From a virus: a stretch of 43,291 nt of DNA. Positions within the stretch are counted from its first letter, which is position 1. Every line of letters starts with the position of its first letter. This document shows positions 5,730 to 27,712 of this stretch, piece by piece. The translations under genes and the position numbers were made by a program. Under the pieces are notes generated by a model. It had not been told where the DNA came from. It saw only the letters and a list, made by a program, of their open reading frames with translations, and made no database searches. The DNA lies in IMG/VR virus record IMGVR_UViG_3300028571_000001. One strand, 5' to 3'.

Positions 5730-5737
5730 TATATTTG
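5730..5737 (+). promoter_or_regulatory. Bacteroidota-type -7 promoter motif TATATTTG
   Basis: TAnnTTTG match 70 nt upstream of ATG 5808. The downstream leader resembles the leader of the capsid gene (12069-12111). Confidence 0.55.
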
Positions 5738-5807
5738 CCCGTCCGATATTTGGTGCCGATTCTTCACAGCAAAAAAGAGAAGTTCAAAATTTTAATATTT
5801 TTTCAAA

Positions 5808-6356: not shown

Positions 6357-6360
6357 TATT

Positions 6361-6388
6361 GGGGGTGTTGAACCCCCTCTTTATTTTT
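6361..6388 (+). terminator. Rho-independent terminator
   Basis: GGGGGT (6361-6366) pairs with ACCCCC (6372-6377) around a 5-nt loop, followed by tctttattttt. Confidence 0.75.
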
Positions 6389-6410
6389 ATTGCCGCGAAT
6401 TATTTTTATT

Positions 6411-7301: not shown

Positions 7302-7309
7302 AATAACGA

Positions 7310-7867
7310 ATGGAACTAAGCAGCGAACAGGTTAAGGCAATGGCAAAAGAAGTTGAGGGGGGCGAGCGCCACTTATGGAATAGCGAACCCGAAGTTTGTG
7401 AGTTTATAGGGGCTTTAGTTGCTATGATTAAACCTAAACGTGCGCTTGAAATTGGTGTTTTTCAAGGTGAAACAAGTGTAAAAATCATTGAAAATATGCC
7501 GAAAGATTCATATTTTGCAGGCGTTGACATTGAAGATTTTCGCACTCATAATTGGGCGGGCACTCAACATAGAGGTAGTGCATTTGATTTTATAAAAGGT
7601 AGTTCATCCGATTCCTCCACCTACAAAGGATTTAGCGATAAATTTGATTTTATATTTGTAGACTCAATGCACCATTGGCAGCACATTTTACCTGAATGGA
7701 AGATTGTTGAAAAGTGGCTTGCACCTGCGGGTGTAATTGTATACCATGACACTCATCATATTGAAGACGTTGCAAGGTTAATGGAATATATTGAAAATTA
7801 CGGATACAACATAATTAAACTACAAACACCCTATAATAGAGGATTAACTTTAATAACAAAAGCATAG
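7310..7867 (+). CDS. Class I SAM-dependent methyltransferase (O-methyltransferase-like)
   Basis: Motif I ALEIGVFQGETS. An acidic FIFVDSMHHW segment and GVIVYHD match the small O-methyltransferase / Methyltransf_24-like pattern. Confidence 0.6.
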   Translation: MELSSEQVKAMAKEVEGGERHLWNSEPEVCEFIGALVAMIKPKRALEIGVFQGETSVKIIENMPKDSYFAGVDIEDFRTHNWAGTQHRGSAFDFIKGSSSDSSTYKGFSDKFDFIFVDSMHHWQHILPEWKIVEKWLAPAGVIVYHDTHHIEDVARLMEYIENYGYNIIKLQTPYNRGLTLITKA

Positions 7868-7869
7868 AT

Positions 7870-8025
7870 ATGTCAACTAAAAAGAAACCTAAACGCCCAA
7901 GAGGCAATTACAAAGCACCAATAAACCGTTTATTTTACAACTGTGGCGGCAAAAAAGGCGGCTGCAATTGGGCTGGTGCTACTGAAAGCAAGACGCAAAT
8001 AAAAGTAATTGCTAAATTAAAGTAA
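7870..8025 (+). CDS. Small basic protein (51 aa), hypothetical
   Basis: ATG 7870 lies 3 nt after the previous stop and the stop at 8023-8025 abuts the next ATG (8027). Translation is MSTKKKPKRPRGNYK... It is below the length cutoff of the supplied track. Confidence 0.4.
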   Translation: MSTKKKPKRPRGNYKAPINRLFYNCGGKKGGCNWAGATESKTQIKVIAKLK

Positions 8026-8026
8026 A

Positions 8027-9913
8027 ATGCTAACAACAGAGGAAATAACAGCCATAGTTGACCGCTATGTTGAGCATACAAAAGATTGGGCGCAGGCGCA
8101 AGCACAAAAGCAGTACGGCGGTATGATTAAATCCCTTAATGCTTTGTTCCCGTCAAGCGATGCAGTTAATACTAACACCATTCCTAATCAATTACCTGAG
8201 TATTGGGTTGGTTACAATTATGTAGTTCAGCAAATGCAATCAATTGAGCCGCATACAAGACGCGCGTTATTTCCCGAAAGACTTTTTAATTTACGCACTC
8301 CAAATCAAACTACTGAAGAATTAGAATACATAAAACAAACTTTTAAAAGTGTTACACTACCAGTTTGGCAAGATTTTATAAGCACATTATCACGAGGGGC
8401 GAACCGTTCAAATTACTCATTAAGATTTGAAGGTGATGAAGCAAAAGTAAAAGACTTTGAAGATTATTTAGAGTATTACTTACCAATTTACAATTCATTT
8501 TATAATTGGATACTGCAATACGAAATCCCACTTGCTCAAAAAGATGCAAACGGATATATTGCCGTAATGCCTTACGAAATACCTACAACAACAAATGAGG
8601 CGGGCGATATTGTGATGTCTGATGAAATGGTAAAGCCATTACCTTATTATTTTTCATGTAAAAACACTATTGGAAAAGGTGAGCATTACTATTTGTTTTT
8701 ATCACCAAATGAATATTCAGTAGTGCTTGAAAATGATAAGCCTAAAAGAATAGGGCAAGTGCTTTACTTGTTTGATGACACTTACATTTACCGAATTGAA
8801 CAAACGGGCAAACGTGTTGATTTTAAATTTAGTGAGCAAGTTATTTACTTTGAGCATTTATGCGGTGAAGTTCCTGTTCAACAGTTGGGAGGTGTTCCAA
8901 ATTATGTGAATGATAAAGTTGTTTTTGATAGCGCATTTAGCTTTGTTTCTGACATTTTAGATTTGGTATTACTTGACCAAAATAATTTAAACATTGCAAA
9001 GACTAAATGCATTTATCCATACCGAATAATGCTTGGTTCAATTTGTGATTTTGAAATTGACGGAGCAAAGTGTGATAATGGTTATATATTAAGCGAAACA
9101 GGAACTAAAAACACATGTCCAGCTTGTAAAGGGCGAGGAAGTGTACCTCGCATATCTCCTCTTGGTGAATTGCTAATAAACCCTGAAGATGTTTTTGGAA
9201 ATGGAGATAAATTAACAACAGCGCCAATTCAGTATGTCAGCCCATCCACAGAAACGGTTGAATTCTTGAAAAAAGAAATTGCGGACAATGAAATTAGAGC
9301 GCGCAAAATTGTACACTTAAACGATAGTGATGCAAAAGTTGCAGGAAATGAAAGCACAACCGCAACGGGGTCTTTAAATAAATTACGCTCAACATACGCA
9401 TTTATTAAGCCTATCAACAGCCAAACATTTAAAGTTGCATTTAAGGTTTTAGATTACATTTCCATCCAAAGAACGGGAGGTGCGGTTAATGTTTACGGTA
9501 CAGAGCCGACAAGTTTTGATATTAATACACCATCTGACTATTTAGATGCAATTAATGAAGCTAAATTAAGCGGAGTTGCACCTTTTATAATGTATCAACT
9601 TTATTCTGCTTACTTGATGTCAATTTCAAAGACAGATCCGTTACAAGCATCAGCTTACGATTTATTACTTAATACAGATTTGTTACTTGGAAACACACAA
9701 GAAGAAATTGCACTTAGAATTGCAAGCGGAACTGCTGAAAAATGGATGGATATTGTGCATAATTCTGGACTTGTTTTAATTTATCAATTGCATGACGCAA
9801 ATGAAAGGTTCTTTAATTTAAGTATGGAGGAGCAAAAAACGCAATTGGTTGATTTAGCTAAAAAACTTGTTGAAACGCCTCCGACAAATATGCGCGCTGA
9901 TGTTATTGTGTAG
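8027..9913 (+). CDS. Portal protein candidate
   Basis: 628 aa, directly upstream of a MuF-like head morphogenesis gene, then scaffold and capsid. Called from size and synteny only. Contains a four-Cys cluster (CDFEIDGAKC ... CPACKGRG). Confidence 0.5.
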   Translation: MLTTEEITAIVDRYVEHTKDWAQAQAQKQYGGMIKSLNALFPSSDAVNTNTIPNQLPEYWVGYNYVVQQMQSIEPHTRRALFPERLFNLRTPNQTTEELEYIKQTFKSVTLPVWQDFISTLSRGANRSNYSLRFEGDEAKVKDFEDYLEYYLPIYNSFYNWILQYEIPLAQKDANGYIAVMPYEIPTTTNEAGDIVMSDEMVKPLPYYFSCKNTIGKGEHYYLFLSPNEYSVVLENDKPKRIGQVLYLFDDTYIYRIEQTGKRVDFKFSEQVIYFEHLCGEVPVQQLGGVPNYVNDKVVFDSAFSFVSDILDLVLLDQNNLNIAKTKCIYPYRIMLGSICDFEIDGAKCDNGYILSETGTKNTCPACKGRGSVPRISPLGELLINPEDVFGNGDKLTTAPIQYVSPSTETVEFLKKEIADNEIRARKIVHLNDSDAKVAGNESTTATGSLNKLRSTYAFIKPINSQTFKVAFKVLDYISIQRTGGAVNVYGTEPTSFDINTPSDYLDAINEAKLSGVAPFIMYQLYSAYLMSISKTDPLQASAYDLLLNTDLLLGNTQEEIALRIASGTAEKWMDIVHNSGLVLIYQLHDANERFFNLSMEEQKTQLVDLAKKLVETPPTNMRADVIV

Positions 9914-9915
9914 TA

Positions 9916-10788
9916 ATGACTATTGACGAACTAATAAAAAAAAAGATTGAAATACTGGAGAATGAGCCTGAGAAATTGGGCGAAGCTGCGGTAAAATCAC
10001 AACTTTATATTTGGGAGCAAGTACAAGAGCAAATTGATAAATTTGAAACTGTTGATGGTAAAATTGTAGTTAATAACAAAAATATCCGCATACTTTACAA
10101 AGTAATTGACACGCTAAAAGAATCTATTAACAATACCGATTTTCAAAAAGCAATGAAAGCGTTTGTTAATTCATTTGATGAGGCGACCACAATATCAGAT
10201 AGGCTTGCAAAAGAAATTGAGAAAGGGTTTAAGCCGAATAAAGCACAAAAAGATTTAGTTCAATTAGCAAAAGATAACGCAGTTTCAACATTGATTGGTG
10301 AAGGATTGGCCGCACGATTAACCCAGCCGTTTGTTGAATTATTAGCGGCAAATGTAAGTGCAGGAAATAGCTTACTTGAAACGCGTAAACAGTTAAAAAA
10401 GTTTGTTCTTGGAACAAAAGATTCGGATGGAAGGTTACTTGCAAATGTGCGGACAAATTCAGCCACAGCTTTAGCCGTTGCGGATGCTTCATATTCAGCC
10501 GCAGTTGCCGAACAAGTTGGTGCGGTTTGGTTTAGATATGCAGGAAGCGTTATTGACACAACAAGACCATTCTGCAAAGAACGCGCGGGTAAATATTACC
10601 ACAAAAAAGAGATTGAATCATGGGCTAATGGCGATTGGAAAGGGGAAATCGCAGGCACTACTTCGCGTACAATTTTTAGTTTTAGAGGCGGGTGGAATTG
10701 CAGACACTCAATAAATATGTTAAATATTCGAGTAGTTCCACAGTCAGTTATACAAAGAAATATTGATAATGGTAATTATAAACAATAA
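9916..10788 (+). CDS. Head morphogenesis protein, Mu F / SPP1 gp7-like
   Basis: C-terminal signature WFRYAGSVIDTTRPFCKERAGKYY ... GGWNCRHS is typical of the Phage_Mu_F domain. Confidence 0.75.
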   Translation: MTIDELIKKKIEILENEPEKLGEAAVKSQLYIWEQVQEQIDKFETVDGKIVVNNKNIRILYKVIDTLKESINNTDFQKAMKAFVNSFDEATTISDRLAKEIEKGFKPNKAQKDLVQLAKDNAVSTLIGEGLAARLTQPFVELLAANVSAGNSLLETRKQLKKFVLGTKDSDGRLLANVRTNSATALAVADASYSAAVAEQVGAVWFRYAGSVIDTTRPFCKERAGKYYHKKEIESWANGDWKGEIAGTTSRTIFSFRGGWNCRHSINMLNIRVVPQSVIQRNIDNGNYKQ

Positions 10789-10792
10789 TTTG

Positions 10793-10800
10793 TATATTTG
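10793..10800 (+). promoter_or_regulatory. -7 promoter motif TATATTTG
   Basis: TAnnTTTG match 41 nt upstream of ATG 10842. Confidence 0.4.
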
Positions 10801-10841
10801 TATCCAATTAATGTCAAACTAAACCATAAAAACTATGTAAA

Positions 10842-11132
10842 ATGCCAGAAAAAATGATATTATGTATCCGTTATGCGGATGGAATGCAAAGGGAATTTCC
10901 CGAACATCTTGTAAAAAAAACAGGCTATCTTTCAAGAATGGGTTGGTCTGTTTTGGAGGAGTTTGAAATGCCACCTGTAAATGAACTGAAAAAAGTAGTT
11001 GAAGAAAAACCAAAACAAACCAAAGCGCGCAAAGTTGCAAGTCCTGCTGCTGAAGCTATTTTGAATGAAGATGAATTTCAGCCCTTACCTGAAGATGAAG
11101 AAAACGAAACCGACAAATTAAACAATCTATAA
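10842..11132 (+). CDS. Hypothetical acidic protein
   Basis: 96-aa ORF tightly packed between the MuF and scaffold genes. Acidic C-terminus (EDEFQPLPEDEENETD). Confidence 0.5.
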   Translation: MPEKMILCIRYADGMQREFPEHLVKKTGYLSRMGWSVLEEFEMPPVNELKKVVEEKPKQTKARKVASPAAEAILNEDEFQPLPEDEENETDKLNNL

Positions 11133-11135
11133 ACC

Positions 11136-11978
11136 ATGCCAATAAAACCAGAAGAAGCAATTGAAATATTGCAATTTATCGGGATTGACCCCGAAAAAAC
11201 AGAAACGATTGACGCTGCCAAAGATAAATTTGGAGCCGATTTTATTTTAAAAAGTGAAGCGATAAAGGATGATGTAATTGCAAGCAAGATAGTTGGCTCA
11301 CGTATGGGCGCACTTGAAACAGAAGCAAAGCGCACATTTAAAGAAATCGGTGTTGAATTTGAAGGTGAAGAAATTAAGGGTAAAAAGTTAGAGGATATCT
11401 TAAAACTTGGAGCCACAAAAGTAAAAGAACAATTTGAGCAAATTAAAAAGCTAAACACGGGCGGAGATGATGCTTCAAAAGAATGGGAAAAGAAATACAC
11501 AGCCCAACAAAAAAAGTTAGCCGACACTCAAGAACTTGCTAAAAGTCTACAAGAACAGTACACATCACTTGAAGGTACTTACAAAACCGAAAAGAAACAA
11601 GCTAAACTTACTGACTATAAAAAGTCACAGATTGCGGATATAAAATTTAAATCTGACATTAATACTTTAATGCTTGATGGCTTTCATGCAAACATTGAAA
11701 AGAAATACGGAATTGATTTTGATGAAAAAGACGAACCATTTGTAATTGATAGGTCAACAAATAGCCGCATTCAATCAAAGAAAAATGCGGGTAAATTTGC
11801 GGATTTTGGAGAAATTTTTGAACTTGAAGCCGCGGCAAATAAACTTATTGCAGAATCGCCGCACGGAGGTAAACCTGTATTCACACCTAAGCCCGCAGGA
11901 AATCCGCCCGCAGGAAATCCGCCCGCAACAAATCAAAATGTATCTTCAAGAGCTTTGAGAGCCGCAGGGAAGTTTTAA
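11136..11978 (+). CDS. Scaffolding protein candidate
   Basis: 280 aa, Lys/Glu-rich and coiled-coil-like. Lies immediately upstream of the capsid gene. The C-terminus carries a PAGNP tandem repeat. Confidence 0.55.
   Translation: MPIKPEEAIEILQFIGIDPEKTETIDAAKDKFGADFILKSEAIKDDVIASKIVGSRMGALETEAKRTFKEIGVEFEGEEIKGKKLEDILKLGATKVKEQFEQIKKLNTGGDDASKEWEKKYTAQQKKLADTQELAKSLQEQYTSLEGTYKTEKKQAKLTDYKKSQIADIKFKSDINTLMLDGFHANIEKKYGIDFDEKDEPFVIDRSTNSRIQSKKNAGKFADFGEIFELEAAANKLIAESPHGGKPVFTPKPAGNPPAGNPPATNQNVSSRALRAAGKF
11891..11930 (+). repeat. 15-bp in-frame tandem repeat (gcccgcaggaaatcc x2.6)
   Basis: Encodes PAGNPPAGNPPATN near the C-terminus of the scaffold candidate. Confidence 0.9.
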
Positions 11979-12010
11979 AATAAAGCAACAATTACCTTTT
12001 GACGCTTTAA

Positions 12011-12051
12011 AGTGCAATCGAACTCTAATTCTGTTGCACTTTTTTTATTTT
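12011..12051 (+). terminator. Rho-independent terminator
   Basis: AGTGCAA (12011-12017) pairs with TTGCACT (12034-12040), followed by ttttttatttt. Confidence 0.65.
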
Positions 12052-12068
12052 GTAATTAATATTTTTTC

Positions 12069-12076
12069 TATATTTG
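12069..12076 (+). promoter_or_regulatory. -7 promoter motif TATATTTG (capsid gene promoter)
   Basis: TAnnTTTG match 98 nt upstream of ATG 12175. The leader shares GAyATT..GTGCC..GCAAAAA with the 5730 unit. Confidence 0.55.
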
Positions 12077-12174
12077 CAGTATTGGACATTGTGCCTACAT
12101 CGGCAAAAATGATGTAAATCGTGGTGAATCGCCCCGCCATTAATTGGAGCGCAAATTCATAAAATTTACATATC

Positions 12175-13245
12175 ATGTCTGCATTAAATCAGATTTATTC
12201 AGAATGCCCTGCGATTCAGGCAGGTATCAATGATGCTTTTGGCTTTCAAATGGCTCAAGAAGCATTGCCTCAGTTAGAGTTTGTTAACTCCGAATTAAAT
12301 ACACGTAACATTAAACAATTAGTTTCTCCAGGCGGCGCAAAAAAGCGCAAGGTTAAACTTTCATTTTTCCCACGTTTACCTGAATCACAAGCTGTTGAAG
12401 GTGCTGCTGTTTGCGGTCCTTTCGATCCAATTGGCGATAACACGGCAGAATATGAAATCACTGCAAACCCTGTTACTTCAGGAGAATCTTTTACACCAGA
12501 AGATTTAGCAGAATATTGCAGCGGAAATTCAAGCATATTAAATGAGAAATTAGCACTTCACTTAGATGTAATTGATAGAGCTATTGCAACAAGACTTGCT
12601 GAAGAAACCTTTGCTTTAGTTGGTGGATATTCTCAAGATGCAAAAGATTACTATGTTGCCCCAAATCCAGACGGTATAATTACCAATTTGGAAGTATTGG
12701 AAATGCCTACAAGAATTGCATCTTCTCAAGAGCAATCTGGATGGTTAGAAACATTGCAACAAGCTTTAATGATGACAGGTTACACAGGTGGAGTTGTTGG
12801 ATTTGGTGGTGCCGCAATTAACACAGCCTTTAGACGCGCCCTTGCAGGATGCTGCACAAATTCTGGTCTTAATATGCAAGAATTGTTAAGACTTTACGGT
12901 ATTTCATTTGCTTACGACAAGCGCGTTGCGGCTGCTTTTGGTGGTCAAAACGAGGCTTTTTCAACTGTGCCTGGTGCAATTCAATTGCTTTCTTATCAGT
13001 TAGCTGGTTGGAAAGATGGTTTTCCTCCTGCTGCTCAAATGGGTTCTAATTACGTTCGTTTAAGCGCTTCCACTCGCGCTGGTGTTCCTGTTGATATTAT
13101 TTTCAAAGACGAGTGTCCAGGCAATTTGCAAATATCTGTAACGGCAGATGTTCAAACAATTGCACTACCTTCTAATATGTTCTACGAAGGGGATAATTTC
13201 TTTGGAGTTAATTACATTAATCATTTCCGCGCAAAAAACTCATAG
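12175..13245 (+). CDS. Major capsid protein candidate
   Basis: 356 aa, directly after the scaffold candidate. Has its own promoter motif and a long leader and is followed by a hairpin. Small-residue-rich composition. Called from position and expression architecture. Confidence 0.6.
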   Translation: MSALNQIYSECPAIQAGINDAFGFQMAQEALPQLEFVNSELNTRNIKQLVSPGGAKKRKVKLSFFPRLPESQAVEGAAVCGPFDPIGDNTAEYEITANPVTSGESFTPEDLAEYCSGNSSILNEKLALHLDVIDRAIATRLAEETFALVGGYSQDAKDYYVAPNPDGIITNLEVLEMPTRIASSQEQSGWLETLQQALMMTGYTGGVVGFGGAAINTAFRRALAGCCTNSGLNMQELLRLYGISFAYDKRVAAAFGGQNEAFSTVPGAIQLLSYQLAGWKDGFPPAAQMGSNYVRLSASTRAGVPVDIIFKDECPGNLQISVTADVQTIALPSNMFYEGDNFFGVNYINHFRAKNS

Positions 13246-13384
13246 CCCCGATTGAGTATATTGGCAAGCTGTTTGAAAGTGGAGCGGGCTTTTTATACGA
13301 ATCGGGCGAAGGGTACGAATTTAACGCATAGAAACGCATAATTTAATTCATAGTAAATTAAATTTCATAGTTTGATTGGTTTGA

Positions 13385-13409
13385 GGGGGTTTGTCGTGTA
13401 CTTACCCCC
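13385..13409 (+). terminator. Hairpin downstream of capsid gene (weak terminator candidate)
   Basis: GGGGGT (13385-13390) pairs with ACCCCC (13404-13409) around a 13-nt loop. There is no immediate T-run. Confidence 0.3.
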
Positions 13410-13439
13410 AACCATTCAAATTTTTAAAACACAAACACC

Positions 13440-14438
13440 ATGTCAAATTGCTTTTCAAAAATAATAGGAATAAAAGAGGCGTGTTCGCAAGACTACGTAC
13501 CTAAATTATTCATCAATCAAATTGGAATGAATTTGGCATTGTTAGACCAATATGCAGGGAGTAATTATTCAAGCGGCTTGGATTTATTTAATGATAAGTT
13601 GGAATTCGCAGGGGAAGCAATGGCAAGTGAAATGCTTGCTCAATTATCAAAAAGAATAAAAGGAACTACCATTATTGCAAATATTGCAATTGGTTACATT
13701 CCAAATCAAAGCGGTAACAATACTGCTTTAGGTGATGGTAATTGGGTTGGAATTAGAATTAGACAAGATTCGCCTTCATTTATTGCGCTCACTTTAAAAG
13801 ATATTAAATTGAATATTGATACTACGGGAAATATTCCCCTTAAAATATTCGATTACAGAACAAAAAAAATAATTAAGGACATAACAGTTACGGCGAATGA
13901 TTGGAGCCAACTTAATGAAGTTATTCAATCTTTAGGGCGTGACATCGACATAGTAATTGGTTATGAATCACTTTTTACCTCAACGCGCACGCTCGTTAAC
14001 AGAAATGTTTGCACAAATGGTTGCCCGCCTTCATTTATTAGCTGTTCAGACTATACAGATGTTGTTGGGGTTAGGTTTGTTTTAAGTGGTGCAGATTTAG
14101 GGACTTTAAGTAACGTTGGAAACACTTACGGTATGCAATTAAATTACAATATCACATGTAATTATCAATCATGGCTTTGCTCCCTTTCACAAGTTACAGC
14201 CCTACCATTACTTTATAAAGTTGCGGCTGACATAACAGAATACGCAATTCACTTTGCGCCAAATGAGAGAGTAAATAATAGTGTTGATAATAAAGAAAAT
14301 TTAAAATCTCAATATCAGTTTTTTACTCAGAAATATAATGAGGCGTTAAACACGTTGCTTACTAATATGCGATTGCCTGCGGGTGACGATTGTTTTTATT
14401 GTAAGGAAAATTTACGTTATACTATTTCATTACCATAA
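13440..14438 (+). CDS. Hypothetical virion protein
   Basis: 332-aa ORF in the head/neck region. No motif recognised. Confidence 0.5.
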   Translation: MSNCFSKIIGIKEACSQDYVPKLFINQIGMNLALLDQYAGSNYSSGLDLFNDKLEFAGEAMASEMLAQLSKRIKGTTIIANIAIGYIPNQSGNNTALGDGNWVGIRIRQDSPSFIALTLKDIKLNIDTTGNIPLKIFDYRTKKIIKDITVTANDWSQLNEVIQSLGRDIDIVIGYESLFTSTRTLVNRNVCTNGCPPSFISCSDYTDVVGVRFVLSGADLGTLSNVGNTYGMQLNYNITCNYQSWLCSLSQVTALPLLYKVAADITEYAIHFAPNERVNNSVDNKENLKSQYQFFTQKYNEALNTLLTNMRLPAGDDCFYCKENLRYTISLP

Positions 14439-15001
14439 TGACGCGGGATATGGCACAGACAATAGAACAATTAAATAAAAGATTATTAGAATTAACAGAA
14501 TCGCAGAAATTTAATGATGCGTTGACGGAGGCGGCTTTAACTGTGCAAGATGAAATGAGTAATAGAATATTTATTGAATTAGAAAATATTGCAGGAAACA
14601 AAGCGTCAAGTGCAGATTATTCAACTAAAGAAATTTGGGTTGAACCGTTGACATTACCACGCAATGCAGGCAGCGCAATTGGTAAAAGAGGCAAACCAAT
14701 TCAAACAAGATATTTTGCTGGAGGTTGGGCTGATGTTAAATCGCAAGTTGGTCGCCCAAATTATGAATTAAACGGAGTATTGTTTCGTGATTTCAATTCT
14801 GCTTTAGTTTCATTTGGAAGTAATTTACGTGTTGCGTTAACCTTAAAAAATCCTGAAAACTTTGGAAAGGTAAAAGGACTTAATAAAAAATACGGACGTA
14901 CTTTTGGCGTAAATGATAAAGAGCGCGAACTGTTTGGGTTAGTGCTTGGTGATTTAGTTACAAAACAAATTAATGAAGACATAAATACTACAACTACATA
15001 G
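14438..15001 (+). CDS. Hypothetical protein, possible head-tail adaptor
   Basis: 187 aa. Its start overlaps the previous stop (ATAATG). Position between capsid and fibre suggests a neck protein. Weak resemblance only. Confidence 0.35.
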   Translation: MTRDMAQTIEQLNKRLLELTESQKFNDALTEAALTVQDEMSNRIFIELENIAGNKASSADYSTKEIWVEPLTLPRNAGSAIGKRGKPIQTRYFAGGWADVKSQVGRPNYELNGVLFRDFNSALVSFGSNLRVALTLKNPENFGKVKGLNKKYGRTFGVNDKERELFGLVLGDLVTKQINEDINTTTT

Positions 15002-15008
15002 TGTGTAA

Positions 15009-15545
15009 ATGGACATCCTGACCCAAATAATTACTTACGGAAATAGCAAGATTGCTACAAGCGGCCTAATTGAGCGCGCGTTTAATTTAGCTGTTTTGCA
15101 AAGTGGCAATTATTCTGTTTACGAAAGGGATGGACAAATGATATTGGTAAACAATATTGATAATTACCGAGGTCAATCATTTTGGTTATTGCGAACATTA
15201 AGCGTAGTTGCTGAAGATGATGATTTAAAAGGTGGCGGCGAACTTTACACGCATACTTTTAACTTTGACTTAATTGTTTCAAAGCGAAAAAATGAACTTG
15301 CTTGTGATAGTTTTGGAGCCGACTTTGAAATTTACCAACGTATTTTAAAGTCACTTGTTGAAAATGGAAGCGATGAAGCGTTGCGATTGGTAACAACAAG
15401 CAGACAAGCAACAATGCGCGTGCGTGGGTATGGAGCTGCGCCGAAAGAGGTCGCCCAAAAAATAGACTACTCAACAATCGCAATAAAGATTGAAGTAATT
15501 TTAAAAGCAAATATTAACTGCATAGCTAATCTATGCGCAAATTAA
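15009..15545 (+). CDS. Hypothetical virion protein
   Basis: 178-aa ORF packed in the late operon. No motif recognised. Confidence 0.5.
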   Translation: MDILTQIITYGNSKIATSGLIERAFNLAVLQSGNYSVYERDGQMILVNNIDNYRGQSFWLLRTLSVVAEDDDLKGGGELYTHTFNFDLIVSKRKNELACDSFGADFEIYQRILKSLVENGSDEALRLVTTSRQATMRVRGYGAAPKEVAQKIDYSTIAIKIEVILKANINCIANLCAN

Positions 15546-15552
15546 ATAAGAT

Positions 15553-17739
15553 ATGGCAACTCCTTCAGAATTTAAAAAATTAACAGACCCAACAATTCCT
15601 TTTCAAAGCGGAACCGTTGCGCTAAATGATTTAGCACATATAGTTGATGTAAGTGATACTTCAGGAGGTGCGGCGGGGACTTCTAAAAGAACGCCTGTGC
15701 AGAAGATATTTGATGCAATTCTTGCTGCATTTTCTGATTCTTCAACTACAGTAAAAGGCATAACTAAATTATCAGTTGCTCCAGTTTCACCTACAGATCC
15801 AATTGCGGTAGGAGATAATGACCCGCGAAATTCAAACGCAAGAACACCAACGGCTCACGCCTCAACTCATACAAACGGAACGGACGATATTCAGAGTGCA
15901 AACGGTTCTCAAAAGGGTGTATTAACGGCTGCAGATTGGACGGCGTTTAATGGCAAAGCGGTTGTTATTAGCACAGATAAAGCAACAATATCTGCGGGTA
16001 TTTTGGCGGCAACATTAAACCCAAATGCAAGATATATAATTCAAGATGCCTCTGCGGGTGCGATTAGTGTTTTTGCAACTGGAACGGGAAGCATAACAAC
16101 GGCAGCAATATTAAACGGTAATTGGGATGGAACAACATTTACTTTTGGAACTTTTGGAAGATATTCATTAAGCGAAGATTGGTTTATCCCAATGAGTAAT
16201 CAGTATGCAGCCGCGCCAACTAATGATGAAGATTTTGATAAGGGTTACGTTGTAAATGATATTTGGATTGATACAACAACGAGTATAACTTATAAATGCA
16301 TTGATGTAACAACAGGCGCAGCGGTTTGGCAGGCGCAAAGTTTTAATATAATTTCAATCACCTATTCAGATTTAGTTACGGCAATATCAAATTCAACATT
16401 AGTAAAATTAGGGTGGTATTTGCTAACAGACTTTGAATTAACACATGAAATACCTAATAGTGAAGGGGCTACTTGGACATCTCCTGTTGAGCCGATTTTA
16501 ATCCAAGCTATTGACGTTAATAAATTAGCTGATTACGGCCACTCTCAAACATGGTTAGGCGAGGTTGTTTATTATACAACTGATAATAATCAATCTGCGG
16601 TGTTAGGGTGTACAAAAGGTTATGTAAGAAGGAGGGTAAATAATAGATGGAAACTTGATTTTGGAACTGATTACAGAAATAATAGATATAGGAGGTTTGC
16701 GGTTAATGTTACAAATACTTATGATGGTGCAACTATTTACGCTCAATATGCTGTGGTTGAAGATGGTAGCGGGGTTGTGTATGGAAGTTTGCAAGCTGGA
16801 AATTTAGGAAATGCTTTGACCGACGAATTGTTTTGGGTTAATTTAGGATATAATAACGGTGAATATTGGGGGGTAACTGGCACAACTTGGAATATTGGAA
16901 ATTATACCATTGACACCGATGCTGCTGATTTTGAAGATAGACCTATGTTAGACCCAACTGATTTAGATAGTGGAAATTACTTTAACGGAACAATTGAACA
17001 AAGCGCAGATGAAACAGGGTTTAATTTTGGGTTAAATCAATTAAACAATATTGTTGTTAAACTCTACAGCACCATGTACGGCTTCACATTGAGCAACAGC
17101 AGCATGTACGCCTTCACAATGAGCTACAGCAGCCTGTACGGCTTCACATTGAGTAGCAACAGCATCCTGTACGACTTCACAATGAGCGGCAGTAGCCTGT
17201 ACGCCTTCACAATGAGTAGCAACAGCATCCTGTACGACTTCACAATGAGCGGCAGTAGCCTGTACGACTTCACAATGAGCTACAGTAGCCTGTACGGCTT
17301 CACATTGAGTGGCTACAGCACCATGTACGGCTTCACATTGAGTGGCTACAGCACCATGTACGACTTCACATTGAGCAACAGCAGCCTGTACGGCTTCACA
17401 TTGAGCGACAGCAGCCTGTACGTCTTCACAATGAGCTACAGTAGCCTGTTAGGCTTCACAATGAGCTACAGTAGCCTGTACGGCTTCACATTGAGTGGCA
17501 ACACCAGCCTGTACGGCTTCACATTGAGCGACAGCAGCCTGTACGGCTTCACAATGTCTTCACAAACAATTCGAAAATTCTCAATGGAGGGCGTAACGGT
17601 AAATACCCTCGACACCACAATAGCAACAATAATTTTCGGAAATTACTCTAAAACAATAACGTCAAGGATAGATGGAGCACCAAGAATTAGTTACATAGAT
17701 AATTCGGACGCATTACAAATTGTAGATATAAACATATAA
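15553..17739 (+). CDS. Tail fibre protein with C-terminal decapeptide repeat array
   Basis: N-terminal region has fibre-typical motifs (TVKGITKLSVAP..., AHASTHTNGTDDI, KGVLTAADWTAFNGK). The C-terminal third contains 16 tandem 10-11 aa units. Confidence 0.7.
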   Translation: MATPSEFKKLTDPTIPFQSGTVALNDLAHIVDVSDTSGGAAGTSKRTPVQKIFDAILAAFSDSSTTVKGITKLSVAPVSPTDPIAVGDNDPRNSNARTPTAHASTHTNGTDDIQSANGSQKGVLTAADWTAFNGKAVVISTDKATISAGILAATLNPNARYIIQDASAGAISVFATGTGSITTAAILNGNWDGTTFTFGTFGRYSLSEDWFIPMSNQYAAAPTNDEDFDKGYVVNDIWIDTTTSITYKCIDVTTGAAVWQAQSFNIISITYSDLVTAISNSTLVKLGWYLLTDFELTHEIPNSEGATWTSPVEPILIQAIDVNKLADYGHSQTWLGEVVYYTTDNNQSAVLGCTKGYVRRRVNNRWKLDFGTDYRNNRYRRFAVNVTNTYDGATIYAQYAVVEDGSGVVYGSLQAGNLGNALTDELFWVNLGYNNGEYWGVTGTTWNIGNYTIDTDAADFEDRPMLDPTDLDSGNYFNGTIEQSADETGFNFGLNQLNNIVVKLYSTMYGFTLSNSSMYAFTMSYSSLYGFTLSSNSILYDFTMSGSSLYAFTMSSNSILYDFTMSGSSLYDFTMSYSSLYGFTLSGYSTMYGFTLSGYSTMYDFTLSNSSLYGFTLSDSSLYVFTMSYSSLLGFTMSYSSLYGFTLSGNTSLYGFTLSDSSLYGFTMSSQTIRKFSMEGVTVNTLDTTIATIIFGNYSKTITSRIDGAPRISYIDNSDALQIVDINI
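17065..17559 (+). repeat. Tandem 30/33-bp coding repeat, 16 units (consensus xSSLYGFT[LM]S)
   Basis: Units read directly: YSTMYGFTLS, NSSMYAFTMS, YSSLYGFTLS, SNSILYDFTMS ... DSSLYGFTMS. The DNA is much more GC-rich than its flanks (agcagcctgtacggcttcacattgagc). Confidence 0.95.
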
Positions 17740-17770
17740 CAATGAACATAGCAAAGACAATAATAAACAA

Positions 17771-17989
17771 ATGGCATCAATGGAACAAAATACAGACAGT
17801 AATAACGGAATACTTGGATGGGCAATATTCGCAGTAAGTTTTATCGGTTCGTTTTTAGAACCGCTAACTGATGGATTAAAATTTATAGCTGCGTTTACCG
17901 CCGCACTTATTGGTGTTGTAAAGGTTGTTCAATGGATAAGAGTTGAATTAAACAAAAGAAAAAAGGCGCAACAAAAAGGCGGTATTTAA
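17771..17989 (+). CDS. Small membrane protein, holin-like
   Basis: 72 aa with two hydrophobic helices (GWAIFAVSFIGSFL, FIAAFTAALIGVVKVV) and a basic tail (NKRKKAQQKGG). Last gene of the late operon. Confidence 0.4.
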   Translation: MASMEQNTDSNNGILGWAIFAVSFIGSFLEPLTDGLKFIAAFTAALIGVVKVVQWIRVELNKRKKAQQKGGI

Positions 17990-18697
17990 CTACCGTATCA
18001 ACCTACCCGCCAAATCGTATCTAAGCGTATCAATTACAACCCGCACCGATTCAAAATAAACGGGATTGCTTATTGTCATTTCACCGTTGTAATCGTGTTC
18101 TAAGATTTGCAAATAATAAACCCCCAAATAATTAAAAGGCACACGTAAATAATAATTCTGCTGCGTTGAGGTGTTGCCGAATGCATTTTTACTGCCAATT
18201 CGCTGCCAACTAATCATATCACTTGACACCATAATATCAAAATAATTCGCGTTTGTTTCTGACATTGTTTGCCAGTTAATCACCAAGTATCCATTGTTTT
18301 GATATCCTTGTATTGCTCCGAAATTCACAGCCAAAGCTACGTAAGGAATGAAATATGGGCAAAAATTATCTATGTATGAATTAGTGATTGTAAAGCAAAT
18401 GTTCAGCGTGTCGTTGCCTAATTGTACATAGTTGCCTTGTTGAATTAGTGTTGCGTTTTGGTATTGGTTTATTTCGCTAATATTTAAACTACCATTTTGC
18501 GGTGAAGAATAAGCCACGTAAATATATCCTTCTGCGCCGTTTGTATTAAGGTCAAAGCAAAGTGTAGTGTCTCCTATAATTAATTGCTCAAAGCAAAATG
18601 AAGCATTGTAGATTTGGATGAAACTTGGAACAGTGGGAGTGGTAAAAATTTGGCAAGTAACAAGCAATGGCGCAAGTAATAGTAGCAAAGTTTTCAT
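17990..18697 (-). CDS. Secreted protein with a Bacteroidota-type C-terminal beta-sandwich region
   Basis: The start chosen is MKTLLLLLAPLLVTCQ (signal peptide), which overlaps the upstream stop as ATGA. The C-terminal segment WQTMSETNANYFDIMVSSDMISWQRIGSKNAFGNTSTQQNYY...YYLQILEHDYNGE resembles a domain common in secreted Bacteroidota proteins. Confidence 0.5.
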   Translation of the reverse strand: MKTLLLLLAPLLVTCQIFTTPTVPSFIQIYNASFCFEQLIIGDTTLCFDLNTNGAEGYIYVAYSSPQNGSLNISEINQYQNATLIQQGNYVQLGNDTLNICFTITNSYIDNFCPYFIPYVALAVNFGAIQGYQNNGYLVINWQTMSETNANYFDIMVSSDMISWQRIGSKNAFGNTSTQQNYYLRVPFNYLGVYYLQILEHDYNGEMTISNPVYFESVRVVIDTLRYDLAGRLIR

Positions 18698-19203
18698 CTT
18701 ACCAACGTCACCCTCCCCAAATCTCTTAATTTCAAACCCGTAATTGTAGTGTAGTCGCAAGTGTAAACGTACACGCCGCCCATAAATTCACCACCATCCC
18801 ATTCACTCACACCTTCAAATATTACTTGCCCTTCCCGTGTAAAAATCCTTATCATATCTATTGTAATATTTTCTCCAACGGGAATCCAAGTTTTATTCGT
18901 CCCGTCTGGCACAAATGCATTCGGGGCGTAGTAAGTCCACTCTTTGCAATTGTCGACAAATAGAATACGTTTATCAATTGATGTGCATCCGTATTCATTT
19001 GTAATCTCCAACTCCACAATAAAACTACCTTCACGATTAACTACTAATGTTGCATCTTGTTCGGTACTTATAAATCCATCTACATTCCAATTGTACCCGT
19101 ATGCAGTTTGAGTAGTAAGATTTATTATTATATCCTTGTCGCAGTAGTTAATCTGTGCAATAATTGAGTAACATAAAAATAGCAGCACAAGGGTGAATCT
19201 CAT
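18694..19203 (-). CDS. Secreted protein with T9SS type B sorting domain (gliding-motility-associated C-terminal domain, CHU_C-like)
   Basis: Signal peptide MRFTLVLLFLCYSIIAQ. The C-terminus YAPNAFVPDGTNKTWIPVG...IRIFTREGQVIFEG..WDGG...GVYVYTCDY...GRVTLVR follows the PNAFTPNGDG..N..F / IFNRWG..VF / WDG / GVYFY / G.VTLIR pattern. Confidence 0.75.
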   Translation of the reverse strand: MRFTLVLLFLCYSIIAQINYCDKDIIINLTTQTAYGYNWNVDGFISTEQDATLVVNREGSFIVELEITNEYGCTSIDKRILFVDNCKEWTYYAPNAFVPDGTNKTWIPVGENITIDMIRIFTREGQVIFEGVSEWDGGEFMGGVYVYTCDYTTITGLKLRDLGRVTLVR

Positions 19204-19207
19204 GCTG

Positions 19208-19215
19208 CAAAATTA
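19208..19215 (-). promoter_or_regulatory. -7 promoter motif TAATTTTG, 4 nt before ATG 19203
   Basis: Minus strand reads TAATTTTGcagcATG. Spacing implies a leaderless or near-leaderless transcript. Confidence 0.45.
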
Positions 19216-19243: not shown

Positions 19244-20446
19244 TTATCTGCAATAGATTGACATACTACTTATCATACCGTATTTTTTATTTAAAAAGTT
19301 TAGCCCCTGTTGCCTTTCTTCGGGTGTCGCTCTTATTGATTGTGCATAAGCATTAAATCCAATTAAGCTACCATTTACAAAACAGTCCTTTGTTGCTTGC
19401 CAACGCTGATGATAATGACCCATAAAATTGTAGTCTGCAACAGTTTCTTTATTCATATCTCCAATTGCTTTTCTAAGAGGAATTGTAAGACCTCCAACAC
19501 CACCGCTATACTTTATATAATCACCATGAAAGAAACGATTTACATAGCCCATTATGTTTAAATAAACATAAATCCCATCACCAATTACAAACTCTATCTT
19601 TTTATTATTTGAAAAGTAATCGGCTAAATCATGATACATCATCCACTCGTATGAGTTTCTGTAACCTGTTGCTATAAACTTTTCCTTTTCAGTCCTTCCA
19701 TGATTTCCAAAATTGCAAGGAATAATTATCTTTTCAAATTTTCCATGTTGAAGATAAAAATTGATTGCAGTAATAATTTTTTCTTTTGCAAATCGTATTG
19801 CTTGTGTTGGTGAAAGGTAATTGCTTTCTCTTAATTCTTGATGAATATTACCACTTATAAAATCGCCACCAAGCCAAATAACAACTTGCTTTATTTCAGA
19901 ATTATTCCTTTCATGGTAAATCATTTTTAAACTGTTTTGAATTAGCATACTCCAACTTGACGCAGCAATTTCTAAATTATATTTATTCGCACCATTAATT
20001 GTTGAAGGTTCTACCCTTTCGTCAAAATGAGTGTCACTTAATTGTATAATAGGAACGGTTTCGCTTTTACTTTCTGAAACAATAGGCTCAATATTTACAA
20101 TTTCTACGGGCTGTTTAATATTTATGAGCGCATCGAAGCGTTTTTCAGAATCTTCGTAAGCTTTTAATAAATGATTATACTTTGCATTTAACTCCTTTAC
20201 CTTTGCAGATTCAGCGCGTTTTCCGAAATCAAATGCAATAAGTTCGGACGTTGTCTTTGGCGGTTGTTGATCTTTTAATATCTTTTCTTTTGGAGGTTTA
20301 GCTTTCTTTTGCATCTCCCGTCTGAATGCAGTCCTTAATGAACTATGACCTTTTGCTCCGTATTTTATTCCTAATGATTCTGCTATCTCCTTACACGTTT
20401 TAAATCCTTCTGCAATCTTTTGTCGAACAATTTCAGCGTAATTCAT
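19244..20446 (-). CDS. Metallophosphoesterase (calcineurin-like) with N-terminal HTH-like region
   Basis: Motifs in order: QLSDTHFD, WLGGDFISGN, NFGNHGR, GHYH. The N-terminus IAEGFKTCKEIAESLGIKYG looks HTH-like and is followed by a Lys-rich linker. Confidence 0.65.
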   Translation of the reverse strand: MNYAEIVRQKIAEGFKTCKEIAESLGIKYGAKGHSSLRTAFRREMQKKAKPPKEKILKDQQPPKTTSELIAFDFGKRAESAKVKELNAKYNHLLKAYEDSEKRFDALINIKQPVEIVNIEPIVSESKSETVPIIQLSDTHFDERVEPSTINGANKYNLEIAASSWSMLIQNSLKMIYHERNNSEIKQVVIWLGGDFISGNIHQELRESNYLSPTQAIRFAKEKIITAINFYLQHGKFEKIIIPCNFGNHGRTEKEKFIATGYRNSYEWMMYHDLADYFSNNKKIEFVIGDGIYVYLNIMGYVNRFFHGDYIKYSGGVGGLTIPLRKAIGDMNKETVADYNFMGHYHQRWQATKDCFVNGSLIGFNAYAQSIRATPEERQQGLNFLNKKYGMISSMSIYCR

Positions 20447-21219: not shown

Positions 21220-22689
21220 TTAAAAGCCTATAATACCTGCGAGTATCCCCCCACTAACATTTACAATCTGAACCCTACTTGTCGTTTCACAATCACAAAT
21301 CCTTTCCAAAGTAACTGAATGATTTTCGTTTGGCAAGTTAACCGTTACATTTTGCCCCACAACCGAACCAAAACTTCCCGACCATCTATACGTGCAAGGT
21401 TCAAAACAAGCCCGAGCAACTGCAAACAAATTAGCCGAACCGCAACTACTCACATAGCTAAATGGTTGCATTTGTGGACGCGTATATGGCATTGAAATAT
21501 TTTGCAGACCAAACATAGTGTTTCCGTTTGCAATTGCAGCGTTGAAAACAAAATTACAACCTACTCCTGGGGTTAATGGATTGTTGATTCGTGCAATGTC
21601 TGTATTGTTTCCGCGTGAAATGTAAATGCGTCCGTCGTCTGCATACCAACCTGTTCCAAGACTCGCAACAGTCTGAGGCGTTGAACCAACTTGTGTTATT
21701 GTTCCTGTACAAACATTAATTTGCCTTACTGCTCCATTGTTTGAAAAGGTGTAAAGTAAGTTCTCAGCAAACTTTGAATCGTAAACACCATTTATAGTAT
21801 AGTTATTTTGAAATGTTACTACTCCCGTTGACTTGTTAAAGCCGTAAGTTTCAATTTGATTTACTCCATAGTAACAAACTGCGAATCTATTGCCGTCTAA
21901 ATGAAAACCAAGTGTACCTTGTGATCCGTTTGCGCCTCCATTTAGTCCTGCACTACTTATGATTGCTGGGCCTAATCCGCCTGCTGTTAATGGGTAAGCG
22001 TAGAAATTAGTTGATTGAAAACGCTTAGTTACAATCCATGTCGTGTCGCCGCCGCAAGTAGTTACAGCACTTACCGATTCGCGCATATTAAAAGCCGCAT
22101 TTAAAGCAACGTTTTTTACTGCTGTAACGGCCCCTAAACCTCCATTAAGTGTCATGTCAATTACGCTGTATGCCAAAGGTGCTAATCCCATTTGACCAAG
22201 TGTAAATAAATACAAAATATTTGGCGTGTTTGGTTGAGCAACTATTAAAGCTGTTTGCGTTGTGGAATTGCTGCCCGTTAAAAAGTTTCCATTTGGCATT
22301 GCGTTATTGTTCCTATCGTATGCCGTTAGACCATCGCTGTAAGCAAGTATTTGACCTGCGGCATTTGATAGGCAACTTGCACCCTCAATGGTATTAATTG
22401 CGCCAAATTGAAATGCTGCGGGAGGGTTGAGCCTTACGTTACGCCCAAATGTCCAGTTTTGGTTTTGGGCGGTGCAGAATAAGGGCAATAAAAACAGCAC
22501 TAGAAATAATTTAGATTGAAGCCATTTAACAGTTCTTAAATACCTTCTTAATTGCTTAAATCCTTTGCTACTTACTTTAAATTCAGCGTTACTATTAAAA
22601 GCTGGATAATAAAATGAAGCATAACCAAAATTATAAACTTCAACTTTAAAACCATCAACTTCTATTTCTCTTATGTTAATGTTTGCCAT
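21220..22689 (-). CDS. Secreted or membrane-anchored repeat protein (possible beta-propeller), hypothetical
   Basis: 489 aa. A signal-peptide-like segment LFLVLFLLPLFCTAQ sits about 60 aa after the only in-frame ATG. The body is Gly/Asn/Thr-rich and repetitive. Preceded by conserved element R2. Confidence 0.5.
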   Translation of the reverse strand: MANINIREIEVDGFKVEVYNFGYASFYYPAFNSNAEFKVSSKGFKQLRRYLRTVKWLQSKLFLVLFLLPLFCTAQNQNWTFGRNVRLNPPAAFQFGAINTIEGASCLSNAAGQILAYSDGLTAYDRNNNAMPNGNFLTGSNSTTQTALIVAQPNTPNILYLFTLGQMGLAPLAYSVIDMTLNGGLGAVTAVKNVALNAAFNMRESVSAVTTCGGDTTWIVTKRFQSTNFYAYPLTAGGLGPAIISSAGLNGGANGSQGTLGFHLDGNRFAVCYYGVNQIETYGFNKSTGVVTFQNNYTINGVYDSKFAENLLYTFSNNGAVRQINVCTGTITQVGSTPQTVASLGTGWYADDGRIYISRGNNTDIARINNPLTPGVGCNFVFNAAIANGNTMFGLQNISMPYTRPQMQPFSYVSSCGSANLFAVARACFEPCTYRWSGSFGSVVGQNVTVNLPNENHSVTLERICDCETTSRVQIVNVSGGILAGIIGF

Positions 22690-27145: not shown

Positions 27146-27712
27146 CTAAAATCCAATCACAGAACCATTAGGAGAAGGCAAACCAACAACAATATCACTT
27201 ACCGAACCACTACAACCATTCGCGCCTGCCGTTGTATATGTGATTGTTTGACCAATCATAGCGGGTGTAATTTGCGTTACTACGTTACCAAGCGCATCGG
27301 TATAAATCCCACCACTAGGCGTTCCAACTCCAATTGGAATACCAGCCGCATTACTAAAGCAAATATCTGTTAAATTCAAAGTCGGCGGAGTTGGTAAAAT
27401 AACATCAATACAAAAGTTTATTGTAGTATCGCATCCTGAAGCAATATTAGTTACAACATACGACCCCGTAAAATTGCCAGCAGTTGCGCTGATAACTGCC
27501 CAAGTAATTGTATTAGTTCCTTGACCAACAAAAGCATTTGGAACTGTACTCTGCCAAGTTATAGTGTGAGTAGTAGCATCGAAAGGTAAATTGGTAGCAA
27601 GGTTCTGAGCGGTAAATCCTCCACCGTCGTTTACGCATTTTTGAAGGCATGGTTGTGAAAATGCTGCCAATGAGAAGGCTGCTAAAATGATTGTTAATAG
27701 TTGTTTTTTCAT
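27146..27712 (-). CDS. Secreted protein, Ig-like/beta-rich, hypothetical
   Basis: Signal peptide MKKQLLTIILAAFSLAAFSQ. The mature part is Thr/Gly/Asn-rich with paired Cys residues. Confidence 0.55.
   Translation of the reverse strand: MKKQLLTIILAAFSLAAFSQPCLQKCVNDGGGFTAQNLATNLPFDATTHTITWQSTVPNAFVGQGTNTITWAVISATAGNFTGSYVVTNIASGCDTTINFCIDVILPTPPTLNLTDICFSNAAGIPIGVGTPSGGIYTDALGNVVTQITPAMIGQTITYTTAGANGCSGSVSDIVVGLPSPNGSVIGF

Follow-up and report, generated by a model that had tools for sequence, protein, structure and literature searches.

A phage-borne gene pair whose first product has a divergent type B sorting domain and is a candidate substrate of the host type IX secretion system

The gene pair, its predicted signal peptides and its C-termini

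Gene A and gene B are tandem genes on the minus strand of the IMG/VR virus record IMGVR_UViG_3300028571_000001, whose whole stretch of 43,291 nucleotides (nt) was analysed and is called the window here. Gene A encodes a small protein that ends in a relative of the type B sorting domain of the Bacteroidota type IX secretion system (T9SS), and gene B encodes a protein that looks like a secreted lectin. The features of the pair, with protein lengths in amino acids (aa), are as follows.

18694..19203, minus strand: gene A, 169 aa, made up of a predicted signal peptide, a single PKD-like Ig domain and, at the C-terminus, a divergent T9SS type B domain
19156..19203, minus strand: signal peptide of gene A (residues 1-16), with predicted cleavage by signal peptidase I (SPase I) between A16 and Q17 according to the Q-rule, from inspection and conservation
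18943..19155, minus strand: passenger of gene A (residues 17-87), a single PKD-like beta-sandwich in which Cys21, Cys73 and Cys86 are invariant
18697..18942, minus strand: type B sorting domain of gene A (residues 88-169), 78-82 residues, ending at the last residue
17990..18697, minus strand: gene B, 235 aa; predicted signal peptide (cleaved after TC and before Q), galactose-binding/discoidin-like beta-sandwich and Ig/FN3-like beta-sandwich
17993..18019, minus strand: invariant C-terminal tail YDLAGRLIR of gene B, which aligns with the FDKTGKEI strand of P0241, a cellular relative

A preliminary description of this DNA had proposed two tandem minus-strand genes, joined by an ATGA overlap and both starting with signal peptides, and this is borne out by the sequence and by a conserved glutamine at position +1. 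Judged by inspection and conservation, the N-termini of A and B each combine a basic n-region with 11-13 hydrophobic residues in a row and small residues at -3/-1 (MRFTLVLLFLCYSIIA and MKTLLLLLAPLLVTC, each followed by Q). The +1 Gln (Q17 in A) is invariant across 30 homologues of A and nearly invariant across the homologues of B, as in the Q-rule for SPase I signal peptides of Bacteroidetes (PMC5837995). The TGA stop codon of A and the ATG of B overlap as ATGA, with an identical 4-nt overlap in the related locus L001, and gene B is, as judged from this overlap, translationally coupled to gene A. We placed the start of gene B at the ATG at 18697 and not at the TTG at 18760 given by the open reading frame (ORF) finder, because every homologue starts with MKTLL. 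Gene A as a lipoprotein was considered and rejected, with Leu at -1 of Cys11 and Cys11 itself not conserved. Four cysteines of A are invariant among the homologues, as expected of an extracytoplasmic protein. In the passenger, PKD, PKD_4 and ChitinaseA_N were matched across the A family, and the PKD domains of ColH were matched in the PDB. The PDB sequence search matched PKD domains and GhpA, the grappling-hook protein of Aureispira, and no solved type B domain was near enough for use.

The preliminary description had recognised a type B sorting domain at the end of A by the motifs PNAFVPDG, IFTREGQVIFEG, WDGG, GVYVY and GRVTLVR, and all of them do lie within the last 78 residues. Because A alone is borderline by the point on which that description was to stand or fall, a significant match to sorting-domain models, the tests were run at the level of the family. 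The 30 homologues of A are proteins of 167-176 aa with 62-85% identity, on contigs of up to 63 kb. CHU_C was matched by 27 of the 30 (best E 7e-6) and TIGR04131 by 19 (best E 1.2e-6). A profile of the family gave 47,764 matches among 1.84 billion representative proteins, the top ones being multi-PKD giants of 1,000-7,400 aa, to whose very last residues the profile positions 88-173 align. Seven cellular C-termini taken from these matches and tested alone scored 48-63 bits on TIGR04131 (cut-off 35). Of 147 cellular C-termini, 91 were matched by a hidden Markov model (HMM) built from the phage domains only (30 homologues), with E-values as low as 6.5e-12 at a library size of Z = 1.8e9, and hhalign of the phage against the cellular domains gave 99.3% probability and E 4e-20 over 82/82 columns. 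The single-sequence HMM matches are weak, whereas the family-level tests are far beyond chance.

The alignment reaches the final residue (..GRVTLVR and stop) in 30/30 family members. Of 17 positions at which the cellular domains are well conserved, the domain of A keeps 15, one of the exceptions being a conservative change of F to W. The mean pairwise identity within the family is 83% for the sorting domain and 64% for the passenger. Moreover, a 205-aa protein from a syntenic gene cluster in the distant locus L019 is homologous to A (HMM E 6e-20) and scores 49.9 bits on TIGR04131, above the cut-off of 35. The presence of a type B sorting domain on a phage protein is supported in this way by the family profile, the domain-only HMM, hhalign and the TIGR04131-passing homologue of L019. 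At the level of sequence, the homology of the C-terminal domain of A over its whole length with the type B sorting domain (CHU_C / TIGR04131) found on surface adhesins of Bacteroidota can be regarded as established. By the same comparisons, it is a distinct, shortened type B subfamily, which is missed by the curated cut-offs.

Twelve close homologues of gene B were found, together with ~50 distant ones that are 250-260 aa long. The AF2 model of gene B has two beta-sandwiches (pLDDT 72), and Foldseek with this model found generic N-terminal sandwiches of GH2 at TM ~0.3, which supports the fold class only. NedA-like or F5/8 type C (F5_F8_type_C) galactose-binding models were matched by 9 of 20 members of the B family (best E 8.5e-6); the window protein itself gave no match to these galactose-binding models. 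From the model, gene B looks like a lectin-like secreted double beta-sandwich, and the earlier remark that it carries a beta-sandwich segment common in secreted Bacteroidota proteins is reasonable in view of the two-sandwich model and the galactose-binding matches in the family.

A gene for a PorP/SprF-like shuttle usually follows the gene for a type B substrate (PMC12618676). Gene B as such a shuttle was rejected, as 0/20 family members match PF11751 and the model has two beta-sandwiches, not a barrel. The type A models TIGR04183 / PF18962 (Por_Secre_tail) gave no match for gene B at E <= 10, nor for the phage family members; the only full type A sorting domain among the relatives of B is that of the cellular P0241. 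A (Y/F)DxxG(R/K) strand lies near the start of that domain, and the YDLxGR of the B family aligns there. The tail of B looks like a vestigial stub of a type A sorting domain, 9-25 residues long. This stub is probably functional, because it is conserved down to 27% identity. The model search that had been suggested for the two proteins therefore came out divided: A matches the CHU_C and type B models under their curated cut-offs and is homologous at the family level, and the type A models do not match B. Likewise, of the claim that both products are T9SS cargo, the part on A stands by domain homology, and the part on B does not, B having no recognisable T9SS signal.

Distant B-like genes with 27-40% identity were seen in four other loci (L021 5001-5762, L022 4001-4762, L024 4001-4762 and L020 5001-5765). 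Each sits in an apparent lysis cassette, where the gene immediately before it encodes a lysozyme or CHAP endolysin and the genes after it encode a small protein, predicted to have two transmembrane segments, and then a C-tail-anchored protein of 163-173 aa.

Promoter, start-codon hairpin and gene neighbourhood

The following elements border the pair.

19208..19215, minus strand: TAATTTTG, a putative -7 box of the Bacteroidota sigma-A type, 4 nt before the ATG of gene A
19182..19208, minus strand: hairpin of 10 bp that encloses the start codon of gene A, followed by a U-rich tract; a terminator-like site
17980..17995, minus strand: weak terminator-like hairpin with a T-run, overlapping the stop codon of gene B

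A single copy of TANNTTTG alone would mean little, because the motif is not enriched in the window (84 found, 74 +/- 8.6 expected). Within the 60-nt upstream regions of 50 window genes, TAnnTTTG occurs 7 times against 2.9 expected. It stands 4-5 nt from the ATG in eight of nine diverged loci (the window, L001, L003, L004, L007, L013, L015 and L017), and the ninth, L005, has TATTTTTA in its place; the sequence farther upstream varies between the loci. In F. psychrophilum, the sigma-A box TAnnTTTG is located at -12 to -5 and 5.5% of mRNAs are leaderless (PMC9723704). Because the 4 nt between box and ATG match this position of -12 to -5, the predicted transcription start is the A of the gene A ATG, which would give a leaderless mRNA. 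The proposal that the pair has its own promoter 4 nt before the first ATG is thus supported by positional conservation and by a spacing as in the Flavobacterium sigma-A box, and the promoter may be called a good candidate. Inspection by eye saw no canonical -33 TTG element at the right spacing upstream of gene A. A like geometry (TAAATTTG, 4 nt, ATG) was noticed at 39595-39607 of the plus strand, before a 153-aa terminase-small-like gene upstream of the large terminase. Leaderless starts may recur in this phage.

The hairpin at the start codon has -14.3 kcal/mol in the window, with a z-score of -5.05 and 0/200 shuffles as good. The z-scores are negative in 8/9 loci (-1.3 to -5.5), and one locus has no hairpin. 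The position is kept while the arms differ (GCAGC/GCTGC, TTGCAA/TTGCAA, ACAGCCA/TGGCTGT, GTAAAAT/ATTTTAC; the loci include L001, L003-L005, L007, L013 and L015). RNAalifold on an unrefined MAFFT alignment of the start regions gave no consensus pairs, because indels shift the 3' arms out of register; the evidence for the hairpin consists of per-sequence folds against shuffles and is weaker than consensus folding. Since its 5' arm lies upstream of the predicted transcription start, only read-through transcripts would carry the full stem, and the leaderless transcript of the cassette itself would not. We infer that the hairpin is a candidate terminator or translational block for read-through from the upstream exonuclease operon. 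Translation in Flavobacterium is sensitive to mRNA structure (PMC6847099).

Around the pair, the following genes are referred to below.

17771..17989, plus strand: convergent gene for a holin-like protein of 72 aa that has a basic C-terminus and is predicted to have two transmembrane segments; the stop codons of this gene and of gene B abut
19244-20446: phrog_284 exonuclease
21220..22689, minus strand: w489, a secreted beta-propeller-like and PKD-like protein ending in ...SGGILAGIIGF, which co-travels with A
27146..27712, minus strand: w188, a secreted Ig-like protein ending in ...NGSVIGF, which co-travels with A and w489
40038-41330: large terminase

The 72-aa protein is probably holin-like, a name given from topology only, and it had no Pfam or PHROG match. 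In all related loci, gene A is the last or last-but-one gene of a leftward block that converges on a holin-like gene of 64-72 aa. Gene B follows A only in the closest lineage of the window and in the distant L019, where the 205-aa homologue of A is followed by a 260-aa B-like gene, and many phages have A without B. In phages whose exonuclease is 54-58% identical, A is absent downstream of the exonuclease.

Two further secreted proteins of the Q-rule type, w188 and w489, share a C-terminal motif ...GG[IL]LGF and co-travel with A in L003, L004, L005, L007 and L019; their counterparts in L019 both end in ...I[YF]TN. The gene order in L003/L004 is membrane protein, endolysin-like, w188, w489 and A. 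L005 has a capsid module different from that of the window (Phage_cap_E, HDPD, ClpP), and over 12.5 kb its only four genes in common with the window are w188, w489, A and the holin-like gene. This gene context, shared across phages with different backbones, suggests that A is part of a portable set of secreted proteins near lysis genes. The ORF of w489 has a 53-residue N-terminal extension (22530-22689, minus strand) before a signal-peptide-like segment, and its homologues lack this extension. There is no canonical in-frame start codon beside the segment, so that the predicted start is uncertain and a fusion or an assembly error is possible.

The label of a moron, which had been given to the pair, holds in part. 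It agrees with the promoter of its own, the hairpins at the flanks and the absence in distant relatives, and it disagrees with the normal composition and the stable synteny within the lineage. The GC content of the cassette is ordinary (0.38 against ~0.36), and the cassette is syntenic within the lineage and also present in a differing backbone. As for the flanks, the hairpin and U tract on the upstream side are strong and conserved and the downstream site is weak; the terminator at 17980..17995 is only suggestive, because such sites are no commoner than in shuffles (2 in the window, 1.7 in shuffles).

Exactly 127 nt are identical at both ends of the window (1-127 and 43165-43291), which indicates a complete, circularly assembled genome of 43,164 bp. 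Structural genes on the plus strand (~1-17989) converge with a long minus-strand block (17990 to ~30788), and the A/B cassette lies at that junction. Other recognisable genes encode a primase/VapE with a BT4734-like N-domain, two SNF2/DEAD helicases, three DNA methyltransferases, a Mu-F-like head protein and an endolysin-like protein. The window yielded no tRNA, and the window ORFs that were scanned yielded no integrase. A Shine-Dalgarno-like 4-mer lies upstream of 2 of 50 window genes (3.6 expected at random), and the upstream regions are rich in A and poor in G. The closest cellular relatives of gene A are from Crocinitomix, Putridiphycobacter and other Bacteroidia metagenome-assembled genomes (MAGs), with ~30% identity. 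The lack of Shine-Dalgarno use, the upstream excess of TAnnTTTG, the Q-rule signal peptides, the BT4734-like primase domain and the nearest relatives in Bacteroidota MAGs together point to a Bacteroidota host. The host phylum named in the preliminary description thus agrees with several independent signals (Shine-Dalgarno, Q-rule, primase domain and cellular relatives).

Homologues of gene A are present in IMG/VR contigs, and the family of ~170-aa proteins occurs on phage-sized contigs only. Among 185,579 reference genomes there was no close copy or prophage copy of gene A. These findings support a phage origin, together with the terminal overlap of the contig and its terminase, primase, exonuclease and endolysin-like genes. 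With 8 kb of sequence surrounding the locus as query, megablast matched none of 50,697 GenBank phages. A, B, w188, w489 and the 72-aa protein belong to no family in PHROGs, and all the homologue clusters are named 'hypothetical protein'.

Elsewhere in the window, a tail-fibre-like protein of 728 aa (15553-17739, plus strand) has ~20 tandem units of ~10 residues, S-S-L-Y-G-F-T-[LM]-S-x, near its C-terminus and gave no Pfam or PHROG match. A weak glycosyltransferase-8-like gene (6390-7301, plus strand) and a clear O-methyltransferase gene (7310-7867, plus strand; Methyltransf_24, CmcI-like) both lie within the structural module, and their products may modify glycans of the host or the virion.

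A possible route through the host secretion system

From its sequence, gene A is probably, though by no means certainly, a minimal substrate of the host T9SS. A type B substrate depends on a PorP/SprF-like shuttle, to which it remains bound and which decides its destination; orphan type B substrates that share a shuttle exist (PMC12618676, PMC9143113). Protein A would be exported by Sec, cleaved before Gln17 and folded with disulfides in the periplasm. It would then pass the SprA/Sov translocon and be taken up by a host shuttle, which would retain it on the cell surface or the gliding track. The shuttle would have to come from the host because no PorP/SprF-like shuttle was found among the phage ORFs scanned. 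We infer the secretion of A through the T9SS from its signal peptide and sorting domain. Gene B would be a lectin-like secreted partner coupled to A, without a recognisable T9SS signal.

With so small a passenger, and with conservation highest in the sorting domain, A most likely acts via that domain. It might occupy or compete for the host type B shuttle and so alter which adhesins are displayed. Resistance to flavobacterial phages maps for the most part to genes of the T9SS and of gliding, in which mutations confer it, and SprB and RemA are believed to act as receptors (PMC9804748). Because T9SS-delivered adhesins are thought to be flavophage receptors, the outcome could be superinfection exclusion, or progeny kept from adsorbing to infected cells. 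This purpose of pathway occupation, which would give exclusion or progeny protection, is our preferred reading, though tentative and by itself less likely than not.

Several points weigh against A being a T9SS substrate. On its own, A scores 17.0 bits with PF13585 CHU_C (E 0.0066), under the curated cut-off of 27, and 15.2 bits with TIGR04131 (E 0.018), under the curated cut-off of 35. The Trp of the RWG motif is Glu (REG) in 30/30 family members and in no cellular sequence examined. Each of the five type B motifs A-E is individually needed for the secretion of SprB (PMC12618676), and the altered RWG motif could therefore abolish or change recognition. The domain has 78 residues as compared with ~87 in the canonical one, with three loops shortened and ~9 loop residues missing. 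PorP_SprF (PF11751) had no match in gene B and 32 other window ORFs, a scan that covered all but ~16 short ORFs. The AF2 model of A is poor (pLDDT 61); it shows two beta-sandwiches, and Foldseek with it gave generic tandem Ig proteins at TM <0.3, which are non-specific. Finally, the neighbourhood of gene A is tied to lysis genes, which points to another role.

Some of these points would be explained if the C-terminal domain had been captured from the 3' end of a host adhesin gene and had lost its function as a T9SS signal, the protein being periplasmic or released at lysis and acting via its Ig fold. The scores under the curated thresholds, the change of RWG to REG and the shortened loops agree with such a decayed signal, and the best cellular matches (~30% identity) span exactly the last PKD repeat and the sorting domain of larger proteins. 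However, no other part of the protein is as conserved as the sorting domain (83%, with 64% for the passenger), which keeps 15/17 consensus positions and ends exactly at the C-terminus in 30/30 members. A conserved and C-terminally exact sorting domain is the pattern expected under selection for recognition by a conserved machinery, and we consider decay unlikely. A role in lysis or egress is suggested by the gene context: A, B, w188 and w489 would work in the envelope when infection ends and help to disrupt or cross the outer membrane, in phages without recognisable spanins. A always converges on the small holin-like gene with two predicted transmembrane segments, L003/L004 have a single block of an endolysin-like gene, a membrane protein, w188, w489 and A, and distant B-like genes directly follow a lysozyme or CHAP endolysin and precede small membrane proteins. 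Nevertheless, none of these proteins resembles spanins or disruptins, and they are without a lipobox or membrane anchor. The promoter of A is of the host-type constitutive kind at the end of the early/replication strand, outside the late operon; regions beside lysis genes are classic insertion sites for accessory genes, and lysis needs no surface-anchoring sorting domain. This role seems quite unlikely to us.

It is also conceivable that several phage proteins form a module on the cell surface, with A as its T9SS anchor, on which w489, w188 and perhaps B dock. Docking might use the shared GGILGF-type tails of w489 and w188, and the small proteins would rebuild the domain series of an SprB-like adhesin, to be carried to the surface by the sorting domain of A. 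In favour of this, w188, w489, A and the holin-like gene are the sole window genes shared with L005 despite its other capsid module, these genes are contiguous in L003, L004 and L019, all members have Q-rule signal peptides, and the C-terminal motif common to w188 and w489 (...GG[IL]LGF) is replaced in both L019 counterparts by ...I[YF]TN. On the other hand, T9SS transport of hetero-oligomers is not established, A is found without B in many phages, and the 188-aa protein of L019 has no detectable homology to w188, so that such docking is improbable. An extended form is in our opinion equally doubtful. Here w188, w489 and A, sometimes with B, would form a portable secretome module in which the domain of A hijacks a host PorP/SprF shuttle and the others dock via their co-varying C-terminal tails. 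The infected cell would display a phage-built adhesin-like structure or have its gliding track blocked, the terminator hairpin would insulate the cassette and the leaderless promoter would bypass the hairpin. Finally, A might be a decoration or structural protein of the virion with Ig-like domains, because Ig-like and PKD domains are common on virions and some tail-tip proteins are among the weak Foldseek matches. The predicted cleavable signal peptide and the invariant cysteines, the location on the replication strand opposite the structural module and the non-specific nature of those matches (TM <0.3) make this highly improbable.

Type B is the less understood branch of the T9SS, in which shuttle binding decides the destination of adhesins (PMC12618676). 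The A family, being little more than a signal peptide and a type B domain, may be a ready-made probe of domain recognition and a candidate viral tool for takeover or blocking of the type B pathway. A phage product that enters the T9SS pathway would, if true, connect infection, exclusion and motility. Moreover, viral use of the T9SS may be under-counted, because the curated cut-offs miss the A family.

Comparison with known systems

Known type B substrates are SprB, Fjoh_3952 and the orphans Fjoh_1123/1720/4934 of F. johnsoniae, and PG1035 of P. gingivalis. Like A, they have a Sec signal peptide, Ig/PKD-type repeats and a domain of ~80-90 residues at the extreme C-terminus, with which A shares the blocks PNAF-P-D-N, I-x-x-R-x-G, WDG, GVYVY and G-x-V-T-L-[IV]-R. 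A also resembles the three F. johnsoniae orphans in that no adjacent shuttle gene was found (PMC12618676). On the other hand, A is phage-encoded and has 169 aa with a single passenger domain, whereas the known substrates have hundreds to >6,000 aa. Its domain is ~9 residues shorter, has Glu for the Trp of RWG, falls under the HMM cut-offs and would depend on a shuttle of the host. As for gene B, its family resembles F5/8 type C (discoidin) and NedA-like domains in the N-terminal sandwich, which also resembles in fold the sugar-binding sandwiches of GH2. Gene B differs from those proteins in having no catalytic domain and in its unique invariant YDLxGR stub.

Envelope proteins of phage morons and lysogenic conversion, such as Bor and Lom of lambda, Llp of T5 and Cor, often block the receptor of the phage itself. 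Like the pair described here, they are small exported proteins with their own promoter, located at module junctions near lysis or tail genes. They differ in the route, which is lipoprotein export or BAM insertion for morons and is proposed to be the T9SS with a host shuttle for A. Moreover, the base composition of the A cassette is not foreign, and there is no integrase among the window ORFs scanned. Prophages of P. gingivalis encode proteins of unknown function with Q-rule signal peptides, which were proposed to modify the outer membrane of the host (PMC10367356). They likewise expose an N-terminal Gln, but no T9SS sorting domain was reported for them (PMC10367356).

Phage-borne T9SS cargo itself has been reported for type A, on 'Cryophage', where it was called a unique occurrence (PMC7468147), and as sorting-domain ORFs on crAss-like contigs (PMC6949934). 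The preliminary description knew of no described function for such cargo; it is right in that function was not tested in these reports, although the cargo was already known. For type B, we found no report of such a domain on a phage protein in the literature, and tblastn with the canonical domain against 50,697 GenBank phage records matched 3, none of them a cultured phage. These are two huge uncultured phages and one fragment; LR745206.1 (27427-27963 and 3 more places) and LR756502.1, of 635-642 kb, are the sole sizeable GenBank phage records with type B-like ORFs. The 'Cryophage' and crAss-like cargo resembles A in coming from metagenomic Bacteroidota phages and was interpreted as hijacking host secretion (PMC7468147, PMC6949934). 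It is of type A, uses the PorV shuttle, is cleaved and attached to A-LPS, and sits on enzymes or BACON-repeat proteins. In contrast, A is of type B and would use a specific PorP/SprF shuttle, stay bound to it and carry a near-empty passenger. As far as these sequence comparisons go, a shortened, orphan type B mini-cargo maintained by phages appears to be new, while type A cargo of phages was already known.

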